A stretch of DNA of 64,000 bases from Candidatus Latescibacterota bacterium (GCA_965208835.1 OZ242358.1:1600001-1664000); one strand, 5' to 3'. Shown: positions 4,981 to 36,540, counted from the stretch's first letter. Numbers and translations are program-made. The notes: generated by a model not told the origin, from the sequence alone.

Positions 4981-5331
4981 TTACACCTGGCCGTGGTCGT
5001 GGTCCTCGTGGCGATCCGAGGCGAATTGCGCGGTCCTTGCCGTCAGTTGTCCGCGGGCGACGAGGCCCTTTTCGATTGCCAGCTCTTCAAGTGAAGCGAC
5101 CCATCGTGCGTAGTAATCCGATGGGTCGTTTTCTTTTTCTGCGGCGGCAATCCGGGAAGCCAGCGCCGCGCTGAACTCGCGCCATTCGTAGACGCCCTTC
5201 TCACAGAGCGCCACGGCAAGACCGAAGGCGCGGGCTTCCCACGGAGCTTCGAATACGAGTTCGCCGTTCTGGCGGGGGAGCGCGACCGTCGTTTCAGCGT
5301 CCGCGATCTTCCTGTCGATTCGACCCGTCAT
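4981..5331 (-). CDS. Nitrile hydratase accessory/activator protein
   Basis: PRQNGELVFEAPWEARAFGLAV, YYARW and His-rich tail HEDHDH. Lies directly after the alpha subunit. Confidence 0.88.
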   Translation of the reverse strand: MTGRIDRKIADAETTVALPRQNGELVFEAPWEARAFGLAVALCEKGVYEWREFSAALASRIAAAEKENDPSDYYARWVASLEELAIEKGLVARGQLTARTAQFASDRHEDHDHGQV

Positions 5332-5338
5332 ATCCGGC

Positions 5339-5947
5339 TCAGTTCGATGAGGTATCGATCCTGGCCACGCCGATCATCGCGTCGCGCGTGACCAGCCGGA
5401 CAAGCGCTTCTTCCGTGAAGTCTTCCGTGCCTTCGGGTCGTTCCGGCAGGACCATATACCGGAGATCCGAATTGCTGTCCCAGACGCGGATTTCGACGGA
5501 CTCCGGCAGATGCAGGTCGAATTCCCTGAGTACTGCCCGTGGTTCCCGGACGAGCCGCGACCGGTAGGCGAAGGATTTGTACCAGCCGGGAGGCAGACCG
5601 AGCACCGGCCATGGATAGCAGGAACAAAGGGTGCAGACGACGACGTTGTGGACCGTCGACGTGTTTTCAAGGACAACGATCTCCGCGCCTTCCCTGCCGG
5701 CGAAGCCCAGCTCCGCGATCGCCTCCGTGCCGTTCTCCAGCAGCCTTCGCTTGTAGCCGTTGTCCGTCCAGGCGCGGGCAACCACCCTGGCTCCGTTGAG
5801 CGGTCCCACGTCCTTCTCGTACTTTTCCACGACTTTGTCAATCGTGTCGGTCGTCAGCAACCCTTTTTCAACCAGCAGCGATTCCAGCGCCCGCGTGCGC
5901 AACGCCGCGTCGGACTCGCTCTGCACGGATTCTTGTCGTCTGTTCAT
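5339..5947 (-). CDS. nthA: Cobalt-type nitrile hydratase alpha subunit
   Basis: VCTLCSCY (Co-type signature), GARVVARAW and GLPPGWYKS. Start placed at MNRRQES (5947). Confidence 0.95.
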
Positions 5948-5965
5948 GACGTCGGCCCCTCGTAA

Positions 5966-6162
5966 GCGGGTAGACGGGAGACGGTAGAATAAATAAGGGG
6001 AGACGGTAGAGGGGAGACGGTAGAAGAAGCCCTTGCCGATATGTTCCTCCGGCTCGCCTGCGGCCTGACAGGAAACCTTACACGGCATGCGATCTCTACC
6101 CTCTCCCGGCTTACGTCTCACCAGGTGGTGGGGTGTCGTGTGGTTCTCTACCCTCTAACCGC
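5966..6162 (-). repeat. Family A heptamer-flanked element, copy 1 (between NHase beta and alpha)
   Basis: GGTAGAC/GGGAGAC arrays, shared core in reverse orientation, and CTCTACC/CTCTCCC arrays. Confidence 0.75.
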
Positions 6163-6212
6163 ATTCAGGTTTTTTGTGGCCAATTTGACTGGTGTCTTTT
6201 TTCGGATTGACG

Positions 6213-6899
6213 TTAATCGCAATCTGACTGCACGGGCGCCAGATAGCCTTCCCACATGTCCAGATAGACCGCGTCTTGCGCTTCGGCCGACTCCCCCCAC
6301 AATTCCCGGGATTCGAAGCGTACGGCATACAGCGGCTGCTCCCGACGCACGCACCATCCGGGCAACTCGGCGTCCTGGAGGTCGTGGATTCCGTAAAAGC
6401 GAGCGATCGTACCTTTCTTTCCCCGGACGTACCGAGGAAGCCGTGTGTGGCCCTCGGGGTGGATGTTTCTCGCCCGTACCGGGTCGCCACTTCGAAATCG
6501 CGGCCGGACTTCCACGTGCGACGGTGTGGTCGAAACGGTTCGTTTGCCCGCGAGTTCCGCCCGGACGCGGTCGGGGTTGGGGGGGACCGGAGTCTCCGCC
6601 TCCGGTCTGTCCCGGAACAGCGCCATCCTCGTCTCCAACTCCTCGTCCGTCAGCGCTCCCGCATCGATCAGGCCCTTGATTCTGGCGTGCAGCCACTTTT
6701 CGTAGTAGGTGGATGACAGATAATGCGCAGGATCCATGTTCTCGATGTTGTTTCGCGAACCTCCCGGGACCGGCACGGGAACGGCAACGGCCATACCCAG
6801 CACGCGCCTCTCCCAATCGTGGTGGAACAGAGGTTCGTCTTCTTCACGTACAATCGGGCCGAATCCGTGCATTCCGCCCAGGTCATGGATGCCGTCCAT
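6213..6899 (-). CDS. nthB: Nitrile hydratase beta subunit
   Basis: MDGIHDLGGMHGFG, YYEKW, HTRLPRYVRGK and DMWEGYL. Confidence 0.95.
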   Translation of the reverse strand: MDGIHDLGGMHGFGPIVREEDEPLFHHDWERRVLGMAVAVPVPVPGGSRNNIENMDPAHYLSSTYYEKWLHARIKGLIDAGALTDEELETRMALFRDRPEAETPVPPNPDRVRAELAGKRTVSTTPSHVEVRPRFRSGDPVRARNIHPEGHTRLPRYVRGKKGTIARFYGIHDLQDAELPGWCVRREQPLYAVRFESRELWGESAEAQDAVYLDMWEGYLAPVQSDCD

Positions 6900-6986
6900 G
6901 GGTGTCTCCCTTGTCCCACAGATCTGTCTCGTCAGCGGCTTCACATATGGATTGCGCAATGGCAGACGCTTCAATCAGCCGCTTCG

Positions 6987-7685
6987 TCAGTCGTTTCCTT
7001 CGTAGACGGGTCTGCCGCGAACCAGAATTCGTTTGGGGTTCGGTACGTCCGCGAGTTCGTCCACGCTGTGGTATCCGATGGTCATGCTCATGCGCGTGCG
7101 ATCCGTGCGGTTCTCGCCGATACCGTGCATGAGCAGGCTGTCGAGTACCAGCATTCCTCCCGCCGGCATGGGAGCAACCAGCGCCTGATCCAGCAGCGAT
7201 CGGCTCCAGTCGTGCCCGTAGAGGCGCCCTTCGATGCCGGGAAAATGGTGAGAGCCGGGGACGAGGAGCGTGGCGCCGTTTTCCGTGTTCGTTTCCTGCA
7301 GGTAGAAGATCACTGTAAAGATCGTTCGGGACCACTGTCTAACGTCGCGGTGGAATCCCTCAGGCCCGGTTTCCACCGACGTGTTCAGCGTTGCATGGTT
7401 GTGCCGGTTCTTGACCAGTTCTATATTGGGCCCCATCAGATACTCCAGAGAATCCAGCACGATGGAACTGGATGCCGTCTCGAGGAAAATCGGATCTCTG
7501 TCAACGAGGCCCGAAATTCTGACCACGCGCCCCTCTGTGTTCCGCACCACGGGTTCGACCTCCGCCCGGATGTCTGCGAGCACGGCCTGCCGGAGTCTAT
7601 CGACGGTGTCTTCGTGAAGACGATCCGGCAGTTTCAGGAAGCCGTTGTGGCGAAACAGGTGTACCTGTTCCGGCGAGAGGGACAT
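6987..7685 (-). CDS. PhyH-family Fe(II)/2-oxoglutarate dioxygenase (canonical H-x-D)
   Basis: FHRD, ENGATLLVPGSH, distal His (LMHG) and 2OG-binding Arg (RTRMS). Start at MSLSPEQ. Confidence 0.88.
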   Translation of the reverse strand: MSLSPEQVHLFRHNGFLKLPDRLHEDTVDRLRQAVLADIRAEVEPVVRNTEGRVVRISGLVDRDPIFLETASSSIVLDSLEYLMGPNIELVKNRHNHATLNTSVETGPEGFHRDVRQWSRTIFTVIFYLQETNTENGATLLVPGSHHFPGIEGRLYGHDWSRSLLDQALVAPMPAGGMLVLDSLLMHGIGENRTDRTRMSMTIGYHSVDELADVPNPKRILVRGRPVYEGND

Positions 7686-7699
7686 GGTTGGTGGTTTCG

Positions 7700-8437
7700 T
7701 TAATGGTGTTGAGGGAAAGGGTGGGGGTGGCCGATGTAGATGCGTTCCCCGGCGGCGAGGATCTTCTCCGGGTCGTCCTTCATGACGTCGTGCGAGTCGT
7801 GCGCCTGGTAGGCCAGCGTCATGCTTCTGCGTGACGTGTCGGCGCCGTTGACGCCCGCGCCGTGGAAACAGCAATCGTTGAAGAGCAGCACGCCTCCTTC
7901 GGGCATCGGTACCGGCAGGGATTTATGGAAGAGGTCGCTCCCTTCGAATGCGCCTCCGGGACGCCGCTGGTGCCGGAAGGGCCGCCGGTGACTGCCGGGT
8001 ACGATGCGGATGCAGCCGTTCTCCAGGGTGGATTCTTCGAGATAGATGAGGGCTGTGACGAGCGTGGGATGGTAAGGCTCTTCGCCGCTGTGCCAGTAGA
8101 CGTGCTCCGATCCGGGCGGCCTTACCATGATGTGATTGTGTTTGTTGGTGAGCAGTTCGATATTGGGTCCGAGGATGGATTTCATCGGGCCCAGGATTAC
8201 GGGATGTGAGGCGGCCTCGAGGTACGTTCGGTCACGAGAGAGAATCTTCGAGAGCCGCCGCACGTCATCCGGCTCACGAGAGCCGGTCTTTTCCCACACG
8301 ACCGGCTCGATCATCCCGCTGATCTGCCGGTTGGTGACGGTATTCAGCCGTTCGACCAGGTCGGCCGGCAACAGTTCGGGAACTCGGTAGAAGCCGGTGT
8401 GGTTGAAATACCAGAGATCCTCTTCGCTCAGGGACAA
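7700..8437 (-). CDS. PhyH-family Fe(II)/2OG enzyme with H-S-G in place of H-x-D (halogenase-like)
   Basis: YWHSGEE, ENGCIRIVPGSH, FHGAGVN and RRSMT. Paralog of the downstream gene. Confidence 0.85.
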   Translation of the reverse strand: MSLSEEDLWYFNHTGFYRVPELLPADLVERLNTVTNRQISGMIEPVVWEKTGSREPDDVRRLSKILSRDRTYLEAASHPVILGPMKSILGPNIELLTNKHNHIMVRPPGSEHVYWHSGEEPYHPTLVTALIYLEESTLENGCIRIVPGSHRRPFRHQRRPGGAFEGSDLFHKSLPVPMPEGGVLLFNDCCFHGAGVNGADTSRRSMTLAYQAHDSHDVMKDDPEKILAAGERIYIGHPHPFPQHH

Positions 8438-8511: not shown

Positions 8512-8660
8512 GGGTATTCTGGCCGTCCGGACGGAGGATGAAGGAGCCCGTGGGCGAGAACCGGTACACACGAAGAACACTCTGGCGGGATCCGATGCAC
8601 ATCGTTTTTACTGTGGCGTGAAATCGAAAAAACATTATATTTAGGATGACATACGTTCGA

Positions 8661-8757
8661 TGCCCACACCCGGCGGGCGTCTCGACGTTTCAGCCTGTCA
8701 GGGTGGGCAGACGATCTGCGAGGGTCGGGCGGCCGTTCCCGAAGGGGCGGTTTTTTT
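8661..8757 (+). promoter_or_regulatory. Structured 5' leader ending in an intrinsic terminator (attenuator/riboswitch candidate)
   Basis: TGCCCAC...GTGGGCA hairpin, then CCGTTCCC-GAA-GGGGCGG-TTTTTTT about 25 nt before the ATG. Confidence 0.45.
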
Positions 8758-8782
8758 ACGTAGACGAAGAAGGGGTTGCTAC

Positions 8783-10630
8783 ATGCCGAATGCGCTGCTG
8801 GTCAGTCCCATGAATCCGGTTACGTTCTGGAGCTTTGACGAAGCGCTGAAAGTAATCGACAAAAAGGTCGCGTTTCCGCCCCTGGGGCTGTTGACCATTG
8901 CCGGCATGATGTCAGATTCATACGACGTGCGAATGGTAGACATGAATGCGCATCCGCTGATCGACGAGGATCTCGAGTGGGCAGATATTGTCATAACGTC
9001 GTCAATGATCATTCACTGGCACTCGCTGGAAGACGTAATTGCGCGCTGCAACCGGATTGGCGTTCCGGTTCTGAACGGTGGACCGCTTCCCACCCAATAC
9101 TACGAAGAGATCGAGGGCGACGCCGTCTTTTACCTGGGCGAAGCGGAAAACGGGTTTATGGACATCGTGGATCGTCTCACCACGGGTTCGGCAACCGTTG
9201 AACGGGAATACGTGGACCGACGCGGCAAGTTTCAGGATCTGGCCGTAACCCCGCTGCCCCGCTGGTCCCTGATCGATTTCGACGACTACAGCAATATGGT
9301 CATCCAGGTTACGCGCGGGTGTCCCGAGAGCTGTACGTTCTGTAACATTCCTTCGCTGTACGGGAAGATAACACGGCTTAAGAGCAAGAGCAGAATGATA
9401 CAGGAGCTGGACGCATTATACGATTCCGGCTGGCGCGGCGCGGTGATGGCTGTGGACGACAATTTCGTGGGCAACCGGGACGAAATAAGGCAATCGCTCG
9501 AGGACGAAGTCGTACCGTGGCAGCAGGAGCGCGGCTATCCGTTTCAGTTCCACACCCAGGCCAGCATCCGGGTCAGCGACGATCCGCAGTTGCTGGAGGC
9601 CATGTACAAGGCCGGGTTCGACAAGGTGTTCGCCGGAATCGAGTCTCCCGTTGAGGAAAGCCTGAAGTTCATGGGCGCTCAGAAGAACCTTCAGGGCAAT
9701 ACACCCCTTTTGGATAAAGTCAAGATTCTCCAGGAAACCGGCTTCGAAGTCCAGGCGGGGTTCATTATCGGCCTGGACACCGACCCGGACGACATTGCCG
9801 AGCGGACCATCGCTTTCATCCGGGAGGCGGGTATTCCCGTGGCGATGGTAGGTATTCTGGGTGTGTTGCGGGATACGCCCGATTACAAGCGATTCAGCCG
9901 ACAGGGAAGGCTGGTGGAAGGCGCGAAATACACGGGCGACTCGGGGGTTTTCAGCCGCGAGTTGAGTTACGTGCCTCTAATAGACCCGGATACCTTGCTG
10001 GAACGGCACCGGTGGACGGTGGAAACGCTGAACAGCCCTGAGATTTTCTTCGAACGATGCCTTACGTTTTTTAATAACCGCGGGCGTCATCCGATTGCAG
10101 ATTCACCCGTACGGCTGCTTGAGATCAAGGCGTTCTTCCGGTCGATCTGGCGCCAGGGCATCCGGAACAGCAACTACCGATGGCAATACTGGAAGTTCAT
10201 GCTGCAGGTGCTCCTCAAGCATCCCGGCAGCTTGGCGGACGCGGTGCGCCTGGCCGTGCAGGGCCATCACCTCATTCTCACCACGCAGCGCGCATTGCAG
10301 GTAGACGAGGTGAAGACATTTCTTGACGAGGCGCTCGAACATCTGGAACATTTCAATAATGGCTATCGCACGGCCTACCGGAAGAACACGGAGACGTACG
10401 CCGGACGTCTTATGCGGGCGGTTCACCACCGCTTCGAGCACTTTCAGGACGACCACAGGACCATGCAGCATCACGCCAAGGTGCTTCGGGGTGCCGCCCA
10501 GGAATACTACCAGGCAACGTGCGAGGAGTTCCAACACCAGATCCGGGAGCCGATGGAGCGTTTTCAACAGGATACCGATCACTTGCTGAGGACGTTTTCG
10601 TCCGAGCGGGCGGCACTGCAGAGGTCATAG
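8783..10630 (+). CDS. B12-binding radical SAM protein (DUF4070-like C-terminus)
   Basis: FPPLGLLTIA cobalamin-binding N-terminus, RGCPESCTFC, VDDNFVG, GIES and GFIIGLD. Confidence 0.88.
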   Translation: MPNALLVSPMNPVTFWSFDEALKVIDKKVAFPPLGLLTIAGMMSDSYDVRMVDMNAHPLIDEDLEWADIVITSSMIIHWHSLEDVIARCNRIGVPVLNGGPLPTQYYEEIEGDAVFYLGEAENGFMDIVDRLTTGSATVEREYVDRRGKFQDLAVTPLPRWSLIDFDDYSNMVIQVTRGCPESCTFCNIPSLYGKITRLKSKSRMIQELDALYDSGWRGAVMAVDDNFVGNRDEIRQSLEDEVVPWQQERGYPFQFHTQASIRVSDDPQLLEAMYKAGFDKVFAGIESPVEESLKFMGAQKNLQGNTPLLDKVKILQETGFEVQAGFIIGLDTDPDDIAERTIAFIREAGIPVAMVGILGVLRDTPDYKRFSRQGRLVEGAKYTGDSGVFSRELSYVPLIDPDTLLERHRWTVETLNSPEIFFERCLTFFNNRGRHPIADSPVRLLEIKAFFRSIWRQGIRNSNYRWQYWKFMLQVLLKHPGSLADAVRLAVQGHHLILTTQRALQVDEVKTFLDEALEHLEHFNNGYRTAYRKNTETYAGRLMRAVHHRFEHFQDDHRTMQHHAKVLRGAAQEYYQATCEEFQHQIREPMERFQQDTDHLLRTFSSERAALQRS

Positions 10631-17982: not shown

Positions 17983-18149
17983 GCGGTGAGAAGGAAGAGG
18001 GAAGCCGGTAGAAGAAATGCGGGTAGACGGTAGAGGTGAGACGGTAGAAGATATCCTCGCCCCGTATGCTTTCCCTCCTTGCCTCCAGAATGAAGAGAAT
18101 CCTTACATGGCATGCAATCTCTCCCCTCTCCCGTCTTCCGTCTCCCCGC
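17983..18149 (-). repeat. Family A element, copy 3 (inverted relative to copy 2)
   Basis: Reverse-complement core GAGATTGCATGCCATGTAAGGATT...GGAGGCAAGG...GAGGATATCTTCTACC. Confidence 0.7.
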
Positions 18150-34255: not shown

Positions 34256-34386
34256 GCCGGGAGACGGAAGAGGTAAGAGGGTAGAGATCGCCTGCCTTGT
34301 ATGGTTTCTTCTCAGGCCGGAGGCATAGAAGAGGAACCGATCGGGTAAGGATTTCTTCTACCGGCTCCCGTCTCACGTCTTCCCGG
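34256..34386 (+). repeat. Family A element, copy 4
   Basis: GGGAGAC-GGAAGAG-GTAAGAG-GGTAGAG, then the core, then TTCTACC-GGCTCCC-GTCTCAC-GTCTTCC. Confidence 0.75.
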
Positions 34387-36450: not shown

Positions 36451-36540
36451 CGGGTAGAAGGAAAAACGTAGAAGGTAGAAGGAAAAAGGAAGAAGAATTG
36501 CGGGTAGACGGTAGAGGTGAGTCGCGGTAGTGGTGGAAGA
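36451..36540 (+). repeat. Purine-rich heptamer array (family A flank without core)
   Basis: AGAAGAATTGCGGGTAGACGGTAGAGGTGAG is nearly identical to 18010-18040. Confidence 0.6.

Follow-up and report, generated by a model that had tools for sequence, protein, structure and literature searches.

A Conserved Clade of PhyH-Family Proteins Lacking the Canonical Iron-Binding Carboxylate, Adjoining Nitrile Hydratase Genes in One Latescibacterota Lineage

The five-gene block and its paralogous oxygenases

A 64,000-nucleotide stretch of DNA from a Candidatus Latescibacterota bacterium (GCA_965208835.1 OZ242358.1:1600001-1664000; the whole stretch is referred to below as the window) carries five co-oriented genes on the minus strand, at positions 4981-8437. 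Two of them encode proteins of the PhyH family of Fe(II)/2-oxoglutarate (2OG) oxygenases, and the other three encode nitrile hydratase (NHase) beta, NHase alpha, and an NHase accessory protein. The subject of this work is P0001, the product of one of the PhyH-family genes, which belongs to a clade marked by a W-H-x-G-E motif (the HxGE clade), together with its canonical paralog, P0002. Window proteins were scored with hidden Markov models, using the Pfam PhyH cut-off of 22 bits and the per-model cut-offs of NCBIfam. The features of the block and its immediate flanks are listed here.

7700-8437, minus strand: P0001, PhyH-family Fe(II)/2OG oxygenase of the W-H-x-G-E clade, 245 amino acids (aa), TTG start; PF05721, 77.8 bits
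8084-8092, minus strand: His116-Ser117-Gly118 codons of P0001
8081-8083, minus strand: Glu119 codon of P0001, the +3 position, right after Gly118
7853-7867, minus strand: FHGAG of P0001, with the distal iron ligand His192, invariant in the alignment described below
7817-7831, minus strand: RRSMT of P0001, with Arg203, which presumably binds 2OG, and Arg204, specific to the clade; neither varies in the same alignment
6987-7685, minus strand: P0002, PhyH-family oxygenase with the canonical triad, 232 aa, ATG start; PF05721, 68 bits
7344-7352, minus strand: His112-Arg113-Asp114 codons of P0002
6213-6899, minus strand: NHase beta; TIGR03888, 204.6 bits (cut-off 152.2)
5948-6212, no strand: beta-alpha intergenic region with an insertion of a repeat element of ~240 bp
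5339-5947, minus strand: NHase alpha; TIGR01323, 298.5 bits (cut-off 249.85)
5618-5635, minus strand: CTLCSC metal site of NHase alpha; the next residue is Y
4981-5331, minus strand: NHase accessory protein; TIGR03889, 74 bits (cut-off 46)
4967-4950, minus strand: terminator-like hairpin after the NHase accessory gene, from a consensus scan
8660-10630, plus strand: B12-binding radical SAM protein with DUF4070, divergent from the block; PF02310, PF04055, PF13282

A BLASTP alignment of P0001 and P0002 (36% identity over 245 columns, E = 1e-44) identifies them as paralogs. GPNIEL, N[KR]HNH, ENG..(V)PGSH, the distal His, and the Arg are present in both proteins, whose alignment matches H116-S-G118 (P0001) to H112-R-D114 (P0002). 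The latter motif is completed by the distal His in MHGIG, giving P0002 the canonical H-x-D...H triad. P0001 is a PhyH-family member by its above-threshold profile score and by its fold, yet the canonical 2-His-1-carboxylate triad is absent from it, Gly118 being found in place of the carboxylate residue. A preliminary description of the locus had reported two co-oriented paralogous PhyH genes ahead of the NHase beta, alpha, and accessory genes, with H-R-D at 7344-7352 in one and H-S-G at 8084-8092 in the other, and with motifs, distal His, and Arg common to both proteins. The Pfam and NCBIfam matches, the identity of the paralogs, and their alignment bear this out, and the codon positions are exactly as claimed.

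The gap between the HxG and HxD genes is 14 bp, so that P0001 and P0002 are probably co-translated; the gaps between the HxD gene and NHase beta and between beta and alpha are 87 bp and 265 bp, respectively. GGGAGAG stands ahead of the TTG start of P0001, and no σ70-like promoter that would correspond to the one putative promoter of the preliminary description was called by the consensus scan upstream of position 8437. Elsewhere in the same genome, a third paralog from the N[RK]HNH PhyH subfamily, 39% identical to P0001, is encoded at G000:C1:3207714-3208403 (locus L082). There is a single W-H-x-G-E copy among the 10 PhyH-like matches found in this genome at E ≤ 1e-10.

Conservation, origin and fold of the W-H-x-G-E proteins

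Homologs of P0001 were searched for in a collection of 5.8 billion proteins. The search gave 964 candidates, 192 of which (90%-identity cluster representatives) had E ≤ 1e-5, and the best 120 were listed. Scanning one genome per species gave 133 confirmed matches, of which the best 80 loci were kept, and residue conservation was read from a 71-sequence alignment. A HMMER search over 1.84 billion cluster representatives returned 2210 matches at E ≤ 1e-3 and 28 at E ≤ 1e-30.

P0001 is 47-88% identical to the best 120 of the 192 homologs. All 120 of these best listed homologs have H-x-G at the aligned position, and in 119 of them Glu directly follows the Gly. W-H-x-G-E was likewise present in 79 of the 80 genome loci; the remaining locus, L079, ends before the motif. 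In the 71-sequence alignment, no variation is seen at H116, G118, H192, R203, and R204, and at least 90% of the sequences keep E119; the mean column identity for the clade is 58%. Thus, the loss of the carboxylate is not a private mutation of the window's gene, and the retention of the other 2OG-oxygenase residues (proximal His, distal His, and Arg), which had been proposed together with it, holds across the alignment.

A different motif is seen in the nearest relatives outside the clade (P0128 at 46% identity, P0130-P0138, and others), in which H-R-D precedes a residue that is not acidic. Representatives at a greater distance carry H-Q-D, and one unrelated protein, P0268, reads H-Q-G-S. A quick IQ-TREE tree with support from the Shimodaira-Hasegawa-like approximate likelihood ratio test (SH-aLRT) was built from 75 of the 80 loci, rows shorter than about 217 aa or with stops being excluded. 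The 75 HxGE rows fell together on one long branch (SH-aLRT 99), whose sister was the H-R-D protein P0128. Since the nearest relatives are H-R-D proteins and the HxGE rows share one branch, the motif arose once, by a paired D-V to G-E change. Judging from these comparisons, the ancestral W-H-R-D-V iron motif became W-H-x-G-E in this clade. The paired change is the pattern that would be expected for a relocated carboxylate, though it falls short of proof. The conservation of the Gly extends to the Glu at +3, which may therefore act as a shifted carboxylate; a caveat to that effect had accompanied the original proposal, and it is strengthened by this co-conservation.

The HxGE clade occurs mainly in Latescibacterota and allied uncultured bacteria, where it is conserved and uncharacterised; in the literature searches aimed at it, none of the listed titles and abstract beginnings described this clade or a W-H-x-G-E motif. 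Its members have three basic residues, R204, R106, and K99, which are invariant or near-invariant in the clade and extra compared to the H-R-D relatives. Their presence would fit an anionic substrate or a bound anion. In locus L072 (9946-10617 and 15061-15942), the HxGE gene is seemingly truncated, the match beginning at query residue 66; its open reading frame (ORF) has no Pfam match, and a DDE transposase gene lies nearby.

An AlphaFold2 model of P0001, made with a 71-row alignment, had a mean predicted local distance difference test score (pLDDT) of 91.4 and a predicted template modelling score (pTM) of 0.89. In this model, the motif ends the strand formed by residues 113-117 and is followed by a short loop, 118-125. 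A Foldseek comparison with the PDB revealed a generic PhyH fold, the list being led by SnoK, human PhyH, proline hydroxylase H11, SnoN, EctD, and GriE, with query-normalised template modelling scores of ~0.70-0.75 to the best PhyH-fold structures; SyrB2 was at rank 44. In a profile search of PDB sequences, PhyH (E = 4e-16) and EctD (6.8e-14) led, and SyrB2 followed at 1.6e-5. Local alignment of the motif region to PDB sequences gave E = 0.039 for CytC3 and 1.0 for SyrB2, and did not place halogenases above hydroxylases. The ESM Atlas search returned generic PhyH clusters only, and the best NCBIfam match of P0001, a weak one, was to a methylphosphonate hydroxylase model (36.5 bits, cut-off 500). 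A predicted complex of P0001 and P0002 with two Fe scored 0.30, the mark being 0.32, which speaks neither for nor against a heterodimer. P0001 thus has the fold and PF05721 domain of PhyH/EctD hydroxylases (human PhyH 2a1x, EctD 3emr) and shares their proximal His, distal His, Arg, and ENGC..PGSH. It differs from them by Gly in place of the carboxylate of H-x-D, the motif of PhyH and EctD with which H116-S-G118 aligns, by a conserved Glu one residue further on, and by the short loop after the motif.

Genomic neighbourhood and the nitrile hydratase cassette

Genes neighbouring the HxGE gene were counted over the 80 loci by tblastn with window proteins and representative neighbour proteins. The H-R-D paralog was found in 37 loci, within 301 bp downstream in 34 of them, and reads H-R-D in every case; the HxGE gene stands without it in the other 43. 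The divergent B12-radical-SAM/DUF4070 gene was found in 36 loci, 34 of which also have the H-R-D paralog, while in L032 the paralog is present and a radical SAM match is absent. The conserved core is the divergent B12-radical-SAM gene, the HxGE oxygenase gene, and the HRD oxygenase gene.

A sulfatase gene starts 627-1037 bp downstream of the HxGE gene in 18 loci, directly after the H-R-D gene in 17 of these, and lies within 5 kb in 23 loci. The sulfatases in this slot combine PF00884 and SGSH_C (e.g., L014, L021, L024, L029, L030, L038-L051, L072, and L075). An M19 dipeptidase gene is located 18-27 bp downstream in 12 loci and at 2.9 kb in a 13th, L060. An enolase-superfamily gene 10-19 bp downstream was seen in five loci, and a GH2 glycosidase gene in four. 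The M19-linked loci, with a "membrane dipeptidase" gene, form a separate subclade of L022, L023, L027, L028, L031, L035, L037, L040, L046, L064, L077, and L078; in L022, the dipeptidase gene is succeeded by genes for an isochorismatase-like protein and a class IV aminotransferase. This linkage hints at an amino-acid or dipeptide-type substrate in that subclade.

The Pfam context was examined for 157 ORFs from 19 loci, 80 of them from six loci and 77 from 13 "solo" loci. The latter 77 were drawn from 106 ORFs of 16 solo loci, L020, L062, L069, and a few short ORFs being excluded. The neighbour domains included GFO/IDH/MocA, xylose-isomerase-like TIM barrels, amidohydrolase_2, aldo-keto reductases, further PhyH proteins, transporters, and an FGE-sulfatase-like protein (formylglycine-generating enzyme family). 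No non-ribosomal peptide synthetase, polyketide synthase, or carrier-protein domains were found among the 157 ORFs. In the window, GFO/IDH/MocA, aldo-keto reductase, and MFS genes flank the block on one side, and the radical SAM gene, a second GFO gene, and an amidohydrolase_2 gene on the other. Overall, the neighbourhood looks catabolic rather than biosynthetic. The best NCBIfam match of the radical SAM gene at 8660-10630 is a PhpK-family model (61 bits versus a cut-off of 600), and none comes near its cut-off. That this gene and the O2-dependent oxygenases provide alternative anaerobic and aerobic routes is pure speculation.

The NHase alpha, beta, and accessory proteins of the window all score beyond equivalog cut-offs, and alpha contains the CxLCSC motif; CTLCSC followed by Y we take to indicate a Co-type enzyme. 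All three proteins match the Co-type NHase system with its accessory (activator) protein, a label that we presume here. Compared to typical Co-type systems, the window differs by the ~240-bp insertion between beta and alpha and by the absence of an amidase gene among its annotated neighbours.

Within this insertion, in the 5948-6212 region, TCTACCGTCTCCC is present three times in direct orientation, and a near-copy of it is inverted. The 265-bp beta-alpha gap of the window is due to the inserted element; in loci L001, L002, and L007, which do not have it, the gap is a few bp. The 13-base core of the repeat occurs 10 times in the window, against 0.09 occurrences expected, and further sites are located at about 18022-18146, 34259-34369, and 36503-36515. 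The element looks like a small mobile intergenic repeat of the miniature inverted-repeat transposable element type.

NHase alpha and beta adjoin the HxGE gene in 14 of the 80 loci (L001-L013 and L073), in each of which identity to P0001 is 80% or more. In five of the 14 (L003, L006, L011, L012, and L013), alpha and beta are present and the accessory gene gave no tblastn match; in L013, the H-R-D paralog is also missing by tblastn. In the quick tree, the 15 NHase-linked rows (the 14 loci and the window) form one clade (SH-aLRT 99), placed beside L014, L015, and L016, where either a sulfatase or a GFO gene takes the place of NHase. NHase was further surveyed in 151 sampled genomes of the phylum, the upstream context being judged in the 30 best-scoring NHase loci. 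At E ≤ 1e-20, 82 of the 151 genomes had NHase alpha, and in 69 of them its score exceeded the family cut-off; all 14 genomes of the window's genus had it. A PhyH gene lies upstream of NHase beta in three of the 30 best loci (L095, L112, and L116), all from the window's genus. In the other 27, the beta-alpha-accessory unit has other surroundings, eight being near a sulfatase.

Since the adjacency to NHase is confined to one clade, it reflects a recent arrangement restricted to that lineage and does not characterise the HxGE family as a whole; a linkage conserved across homologs, whose absence the preliminary description had named as counting against its proposal, is not observed. Because the cassette is self-contained and was inserted in one lineage, nitrile hydration lies outside the conserved function of the HxGE proteins. 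The pathway that had been put forward, in which C-H halogenation or another anion transfer and hydroxylation are coupled to nitrile hydration, rests on this non-conserved adjacency. The missing carboxylate, for its part, is genuine, conserved, and unusual. In the accessible part of a report on metagenome-assembled genomes of sponge-associated Latescibacterota, NHase genes appear in gene lists only (PMC12993501).

Function of the remodelled motif

On balance, we favour, by a modest degree, the view that the HxGE protein is a catalytically active oxygenase whose iron site has been remodelled and that NHase is a genus-level add-on. P0001 retains His116, His192, and Arg203, which by homology form the residue set needed for Fe(II) and 2OG binding. 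The retention of everything required for Fe(II) and 2OG binding apart from the canonical carboxylate, the strong conservation of the clade, and the frequent solo occurrence beside catabolic genes are the reasons for reading the protein as an active oxygenase. P0001 would form a ferryl intermediate and would oxidise a small polar or anionic metabolite, most likely by hydroxylation. Either relocated Glu119 may take the third iron position, or the position may be filled by water or the substrate, in the manner of the two-His hydroxylase AspH; we consider the two arrangements about equally probable. The enzyme would act beside its canonical H-R-D paralog, with the divergent B12-radical-SAM gene paired with it, in a catabolic-looking island of GFO/IDH/MocA, aldo-keto reductase, MFS, and amidohydrolase_2 genes. 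The NHase beta-alpha-accessory genes would be a self-contained unit whose insertion downstream of the oxygenase pair is limited to one genus-level lineage; sister lineages have a sulfatase in that slot. In the window's lineage, the cassette may be co-transcribed with the pair; the sequencing sources listed for this stretch included no RNA.

Caution over equating H-x-G with halogenation comes from the literature. Judging from the available part of one publication (PMC10947486), human AspH, with an HXG...H motif, has only two His ligands and is a hydroxylase nevertheless, and an Asp-to-Gly variant of FIH keeps some activity. The available part of a 2026 halogenase-mining preprint (PMC12871659) states that HXA/G motif searching yields false positives. 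AspH belongs to a different 2OG-oxygenase subfamily and acts on a protein substrate, and so its likeness to P0001 is functional, not one of sequence.

Several observations speak against an active oxygenase with a remodelled iron site and an incidental NHase. The homolog P0122 reads H-R-G-A, making it the sole Glu-less member among the 120. An acid at +3 is found in addition to the one at +2 in EvdO2 (W-H-Q-D-E) and H11 (W-H-H-E-D), and therefore a +3 acid need not bind metal. H-x-G/A is described as the accepted signature of Fe(II)/2OG halogenases in the accessible parts of two sources (PMC11186838, PMC12871659), and AdaV-type halogenases were found with an HXG/A filter according to the first of them (PMC11186838). 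Residues 108-152 of P0001 match the "chlorinating enzyme" model TIGR01762 at 22.9 bits (cut-off 226.3), a match that P0002 lacks. Finally, all 14 NHase-linked loci keep the cassette directly downstream, at a distance of 87 bp in the window, and no terminator is predicted in the window before the hairpin at 4967-4950; in this genus, the oxygenases and NHase may be functionally coupled in a lineage-specific manner.

Such coupling is the essence of the best-surviving alternative, in which the two oxygenases and NHase of the window's genus make up one functional operon acting on a nitrile-bearing metabolite, as in the preliminary proposal but without halogenation. We regard this as a tentative possibility, of fairly low probability. 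It is supported by the co-orientation and close spacing of the genes, by the lack of an earlier predicted terminator, and by the persistence of the arrangement in all NHase-linked loci and in all three genus-level loci among the NHase matches. However, in 27 of the 30 best NHase loci the cassette has another location, its accessory gene is missing by tblastn in five of the 14 linked loci, L013 is without the H-R-D paralog, and a sulfatase holds the same slot in sister lineages. The repeat element inserted between beta and alpha in the window and the lack of an amidase gene among annotated neighbours also argue against a single operon function.

Alternatively, P0001 could be a true radical halogenase like SyrB2, WelO5, BesD, and AdaV. 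Gly118 would open the iron site for chloride or bromide, a haloferryl species would abstract hydrogen, and the halogen would rebound, with the H-R-D paralog acting as a hydroxylase on that substrate or one related to it. Like these enzymes and CytC3, P0001 has H-x-G/A for H-x-D/E, the motif that serves as the halogenase signature; the clade has the H-x-G without exception and retains the remaining catalytic residues, and SyrB2 and CytC3 can be recognised as distant relatives with the PhyH fold. The weak local match to TIGR01762 and the labelling of several DNA sources with this stretch as sponge or marine metagenome, i.e., halide-rich, point in the same direction. We nevertheless consider halogenation unlikely. 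The TIGR01762 score is far below the cut-off, which places P0001 outside the curated family, and SyrB2 ranks behind many hydroxylases in both the Foldseek and the profile searches. Unlike the known halogenases, P0001 has a Glu at +3 that is co-conserved with the Gly, and its genes are found without a biosynthetic-cluster or carrier-protein context, their neighbours being sulfatase, M19 dipeptidase, enolase-superfamily, GH2, and GFO genes. The hydroxylase AspH, with its HXG...H site, is a further counterexample.

It is quite unlikely, in our estimate, that the iron site is assisted by the substrate or by an anion, such that a carboxylate, sulfate ester, or phosph(on)ate group of the substrate, or a non-halide anion, would complete the site and the chemistry would go beyond simple hydroxylation. 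The extra cationic residues R204, R106, and K99, the sulfatases within 5 kb in 23 of the 80 loci, and the methylphosphonate hydroxylase model as the best NCBIfam match are consistent with such a site. The proposal is, however, purely inferential, the score of that model is far under its cut-off, and sulfatases may be common in these genomes, in which case their adjacency would be incidental. We know of no precedent for such a site in the PhyH family. A broader proposal appears to us similarly improbable. According to it, the W-H-x-G-E clade would comprise widespread free-standing Fe(II)/2OG halogenases or anion-transfer enzymes of uncultured marine and sponge-associated bacteria, outside classical biosynthetic clusters. 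Glu119 would position the substrate instead of binding iron, and in the window's genus the halogenated or hydroxylated product would bear or gain a nitrile, to be hydrated by the neighbouring Co-NHase. An inactive or regulatory pseudoenzyme partner of the H-R-D paralog, which the absent carboxylate ligand and the tight adjacency to the paralog in 34 loci (gap ≤ 301 bp) might suggest, is very improbable given the 43 of 80 loci with the HxGE gene and no paralog, the strict conservation of His, His, and Arg, and the mean column identity of the clade.

The choice between an oxygenase with a remodelled iron site and a halogenase matters beyond this locus. H-x-G/A is the motif by which genome-mining pipelines call Fe(II)/2OG halogenases, and the HxGE clade, with at least 133 genome matches and 192 cluster representatives, would be flagged by such a filter. 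If the carboxylate is relocated, or if the proteins are AspH-like two-His hydroxylases, the clade would be a large false-positive class for mining; if they are halogenases, it would be a new stand-alone halogenase family in a catabolic setting. In Latescibacterota, the results show that the "third gene" position after a conserved oxygenase pair is modular, being occupied by a sulfatase or by nitrile hydratase depending on the lineage.

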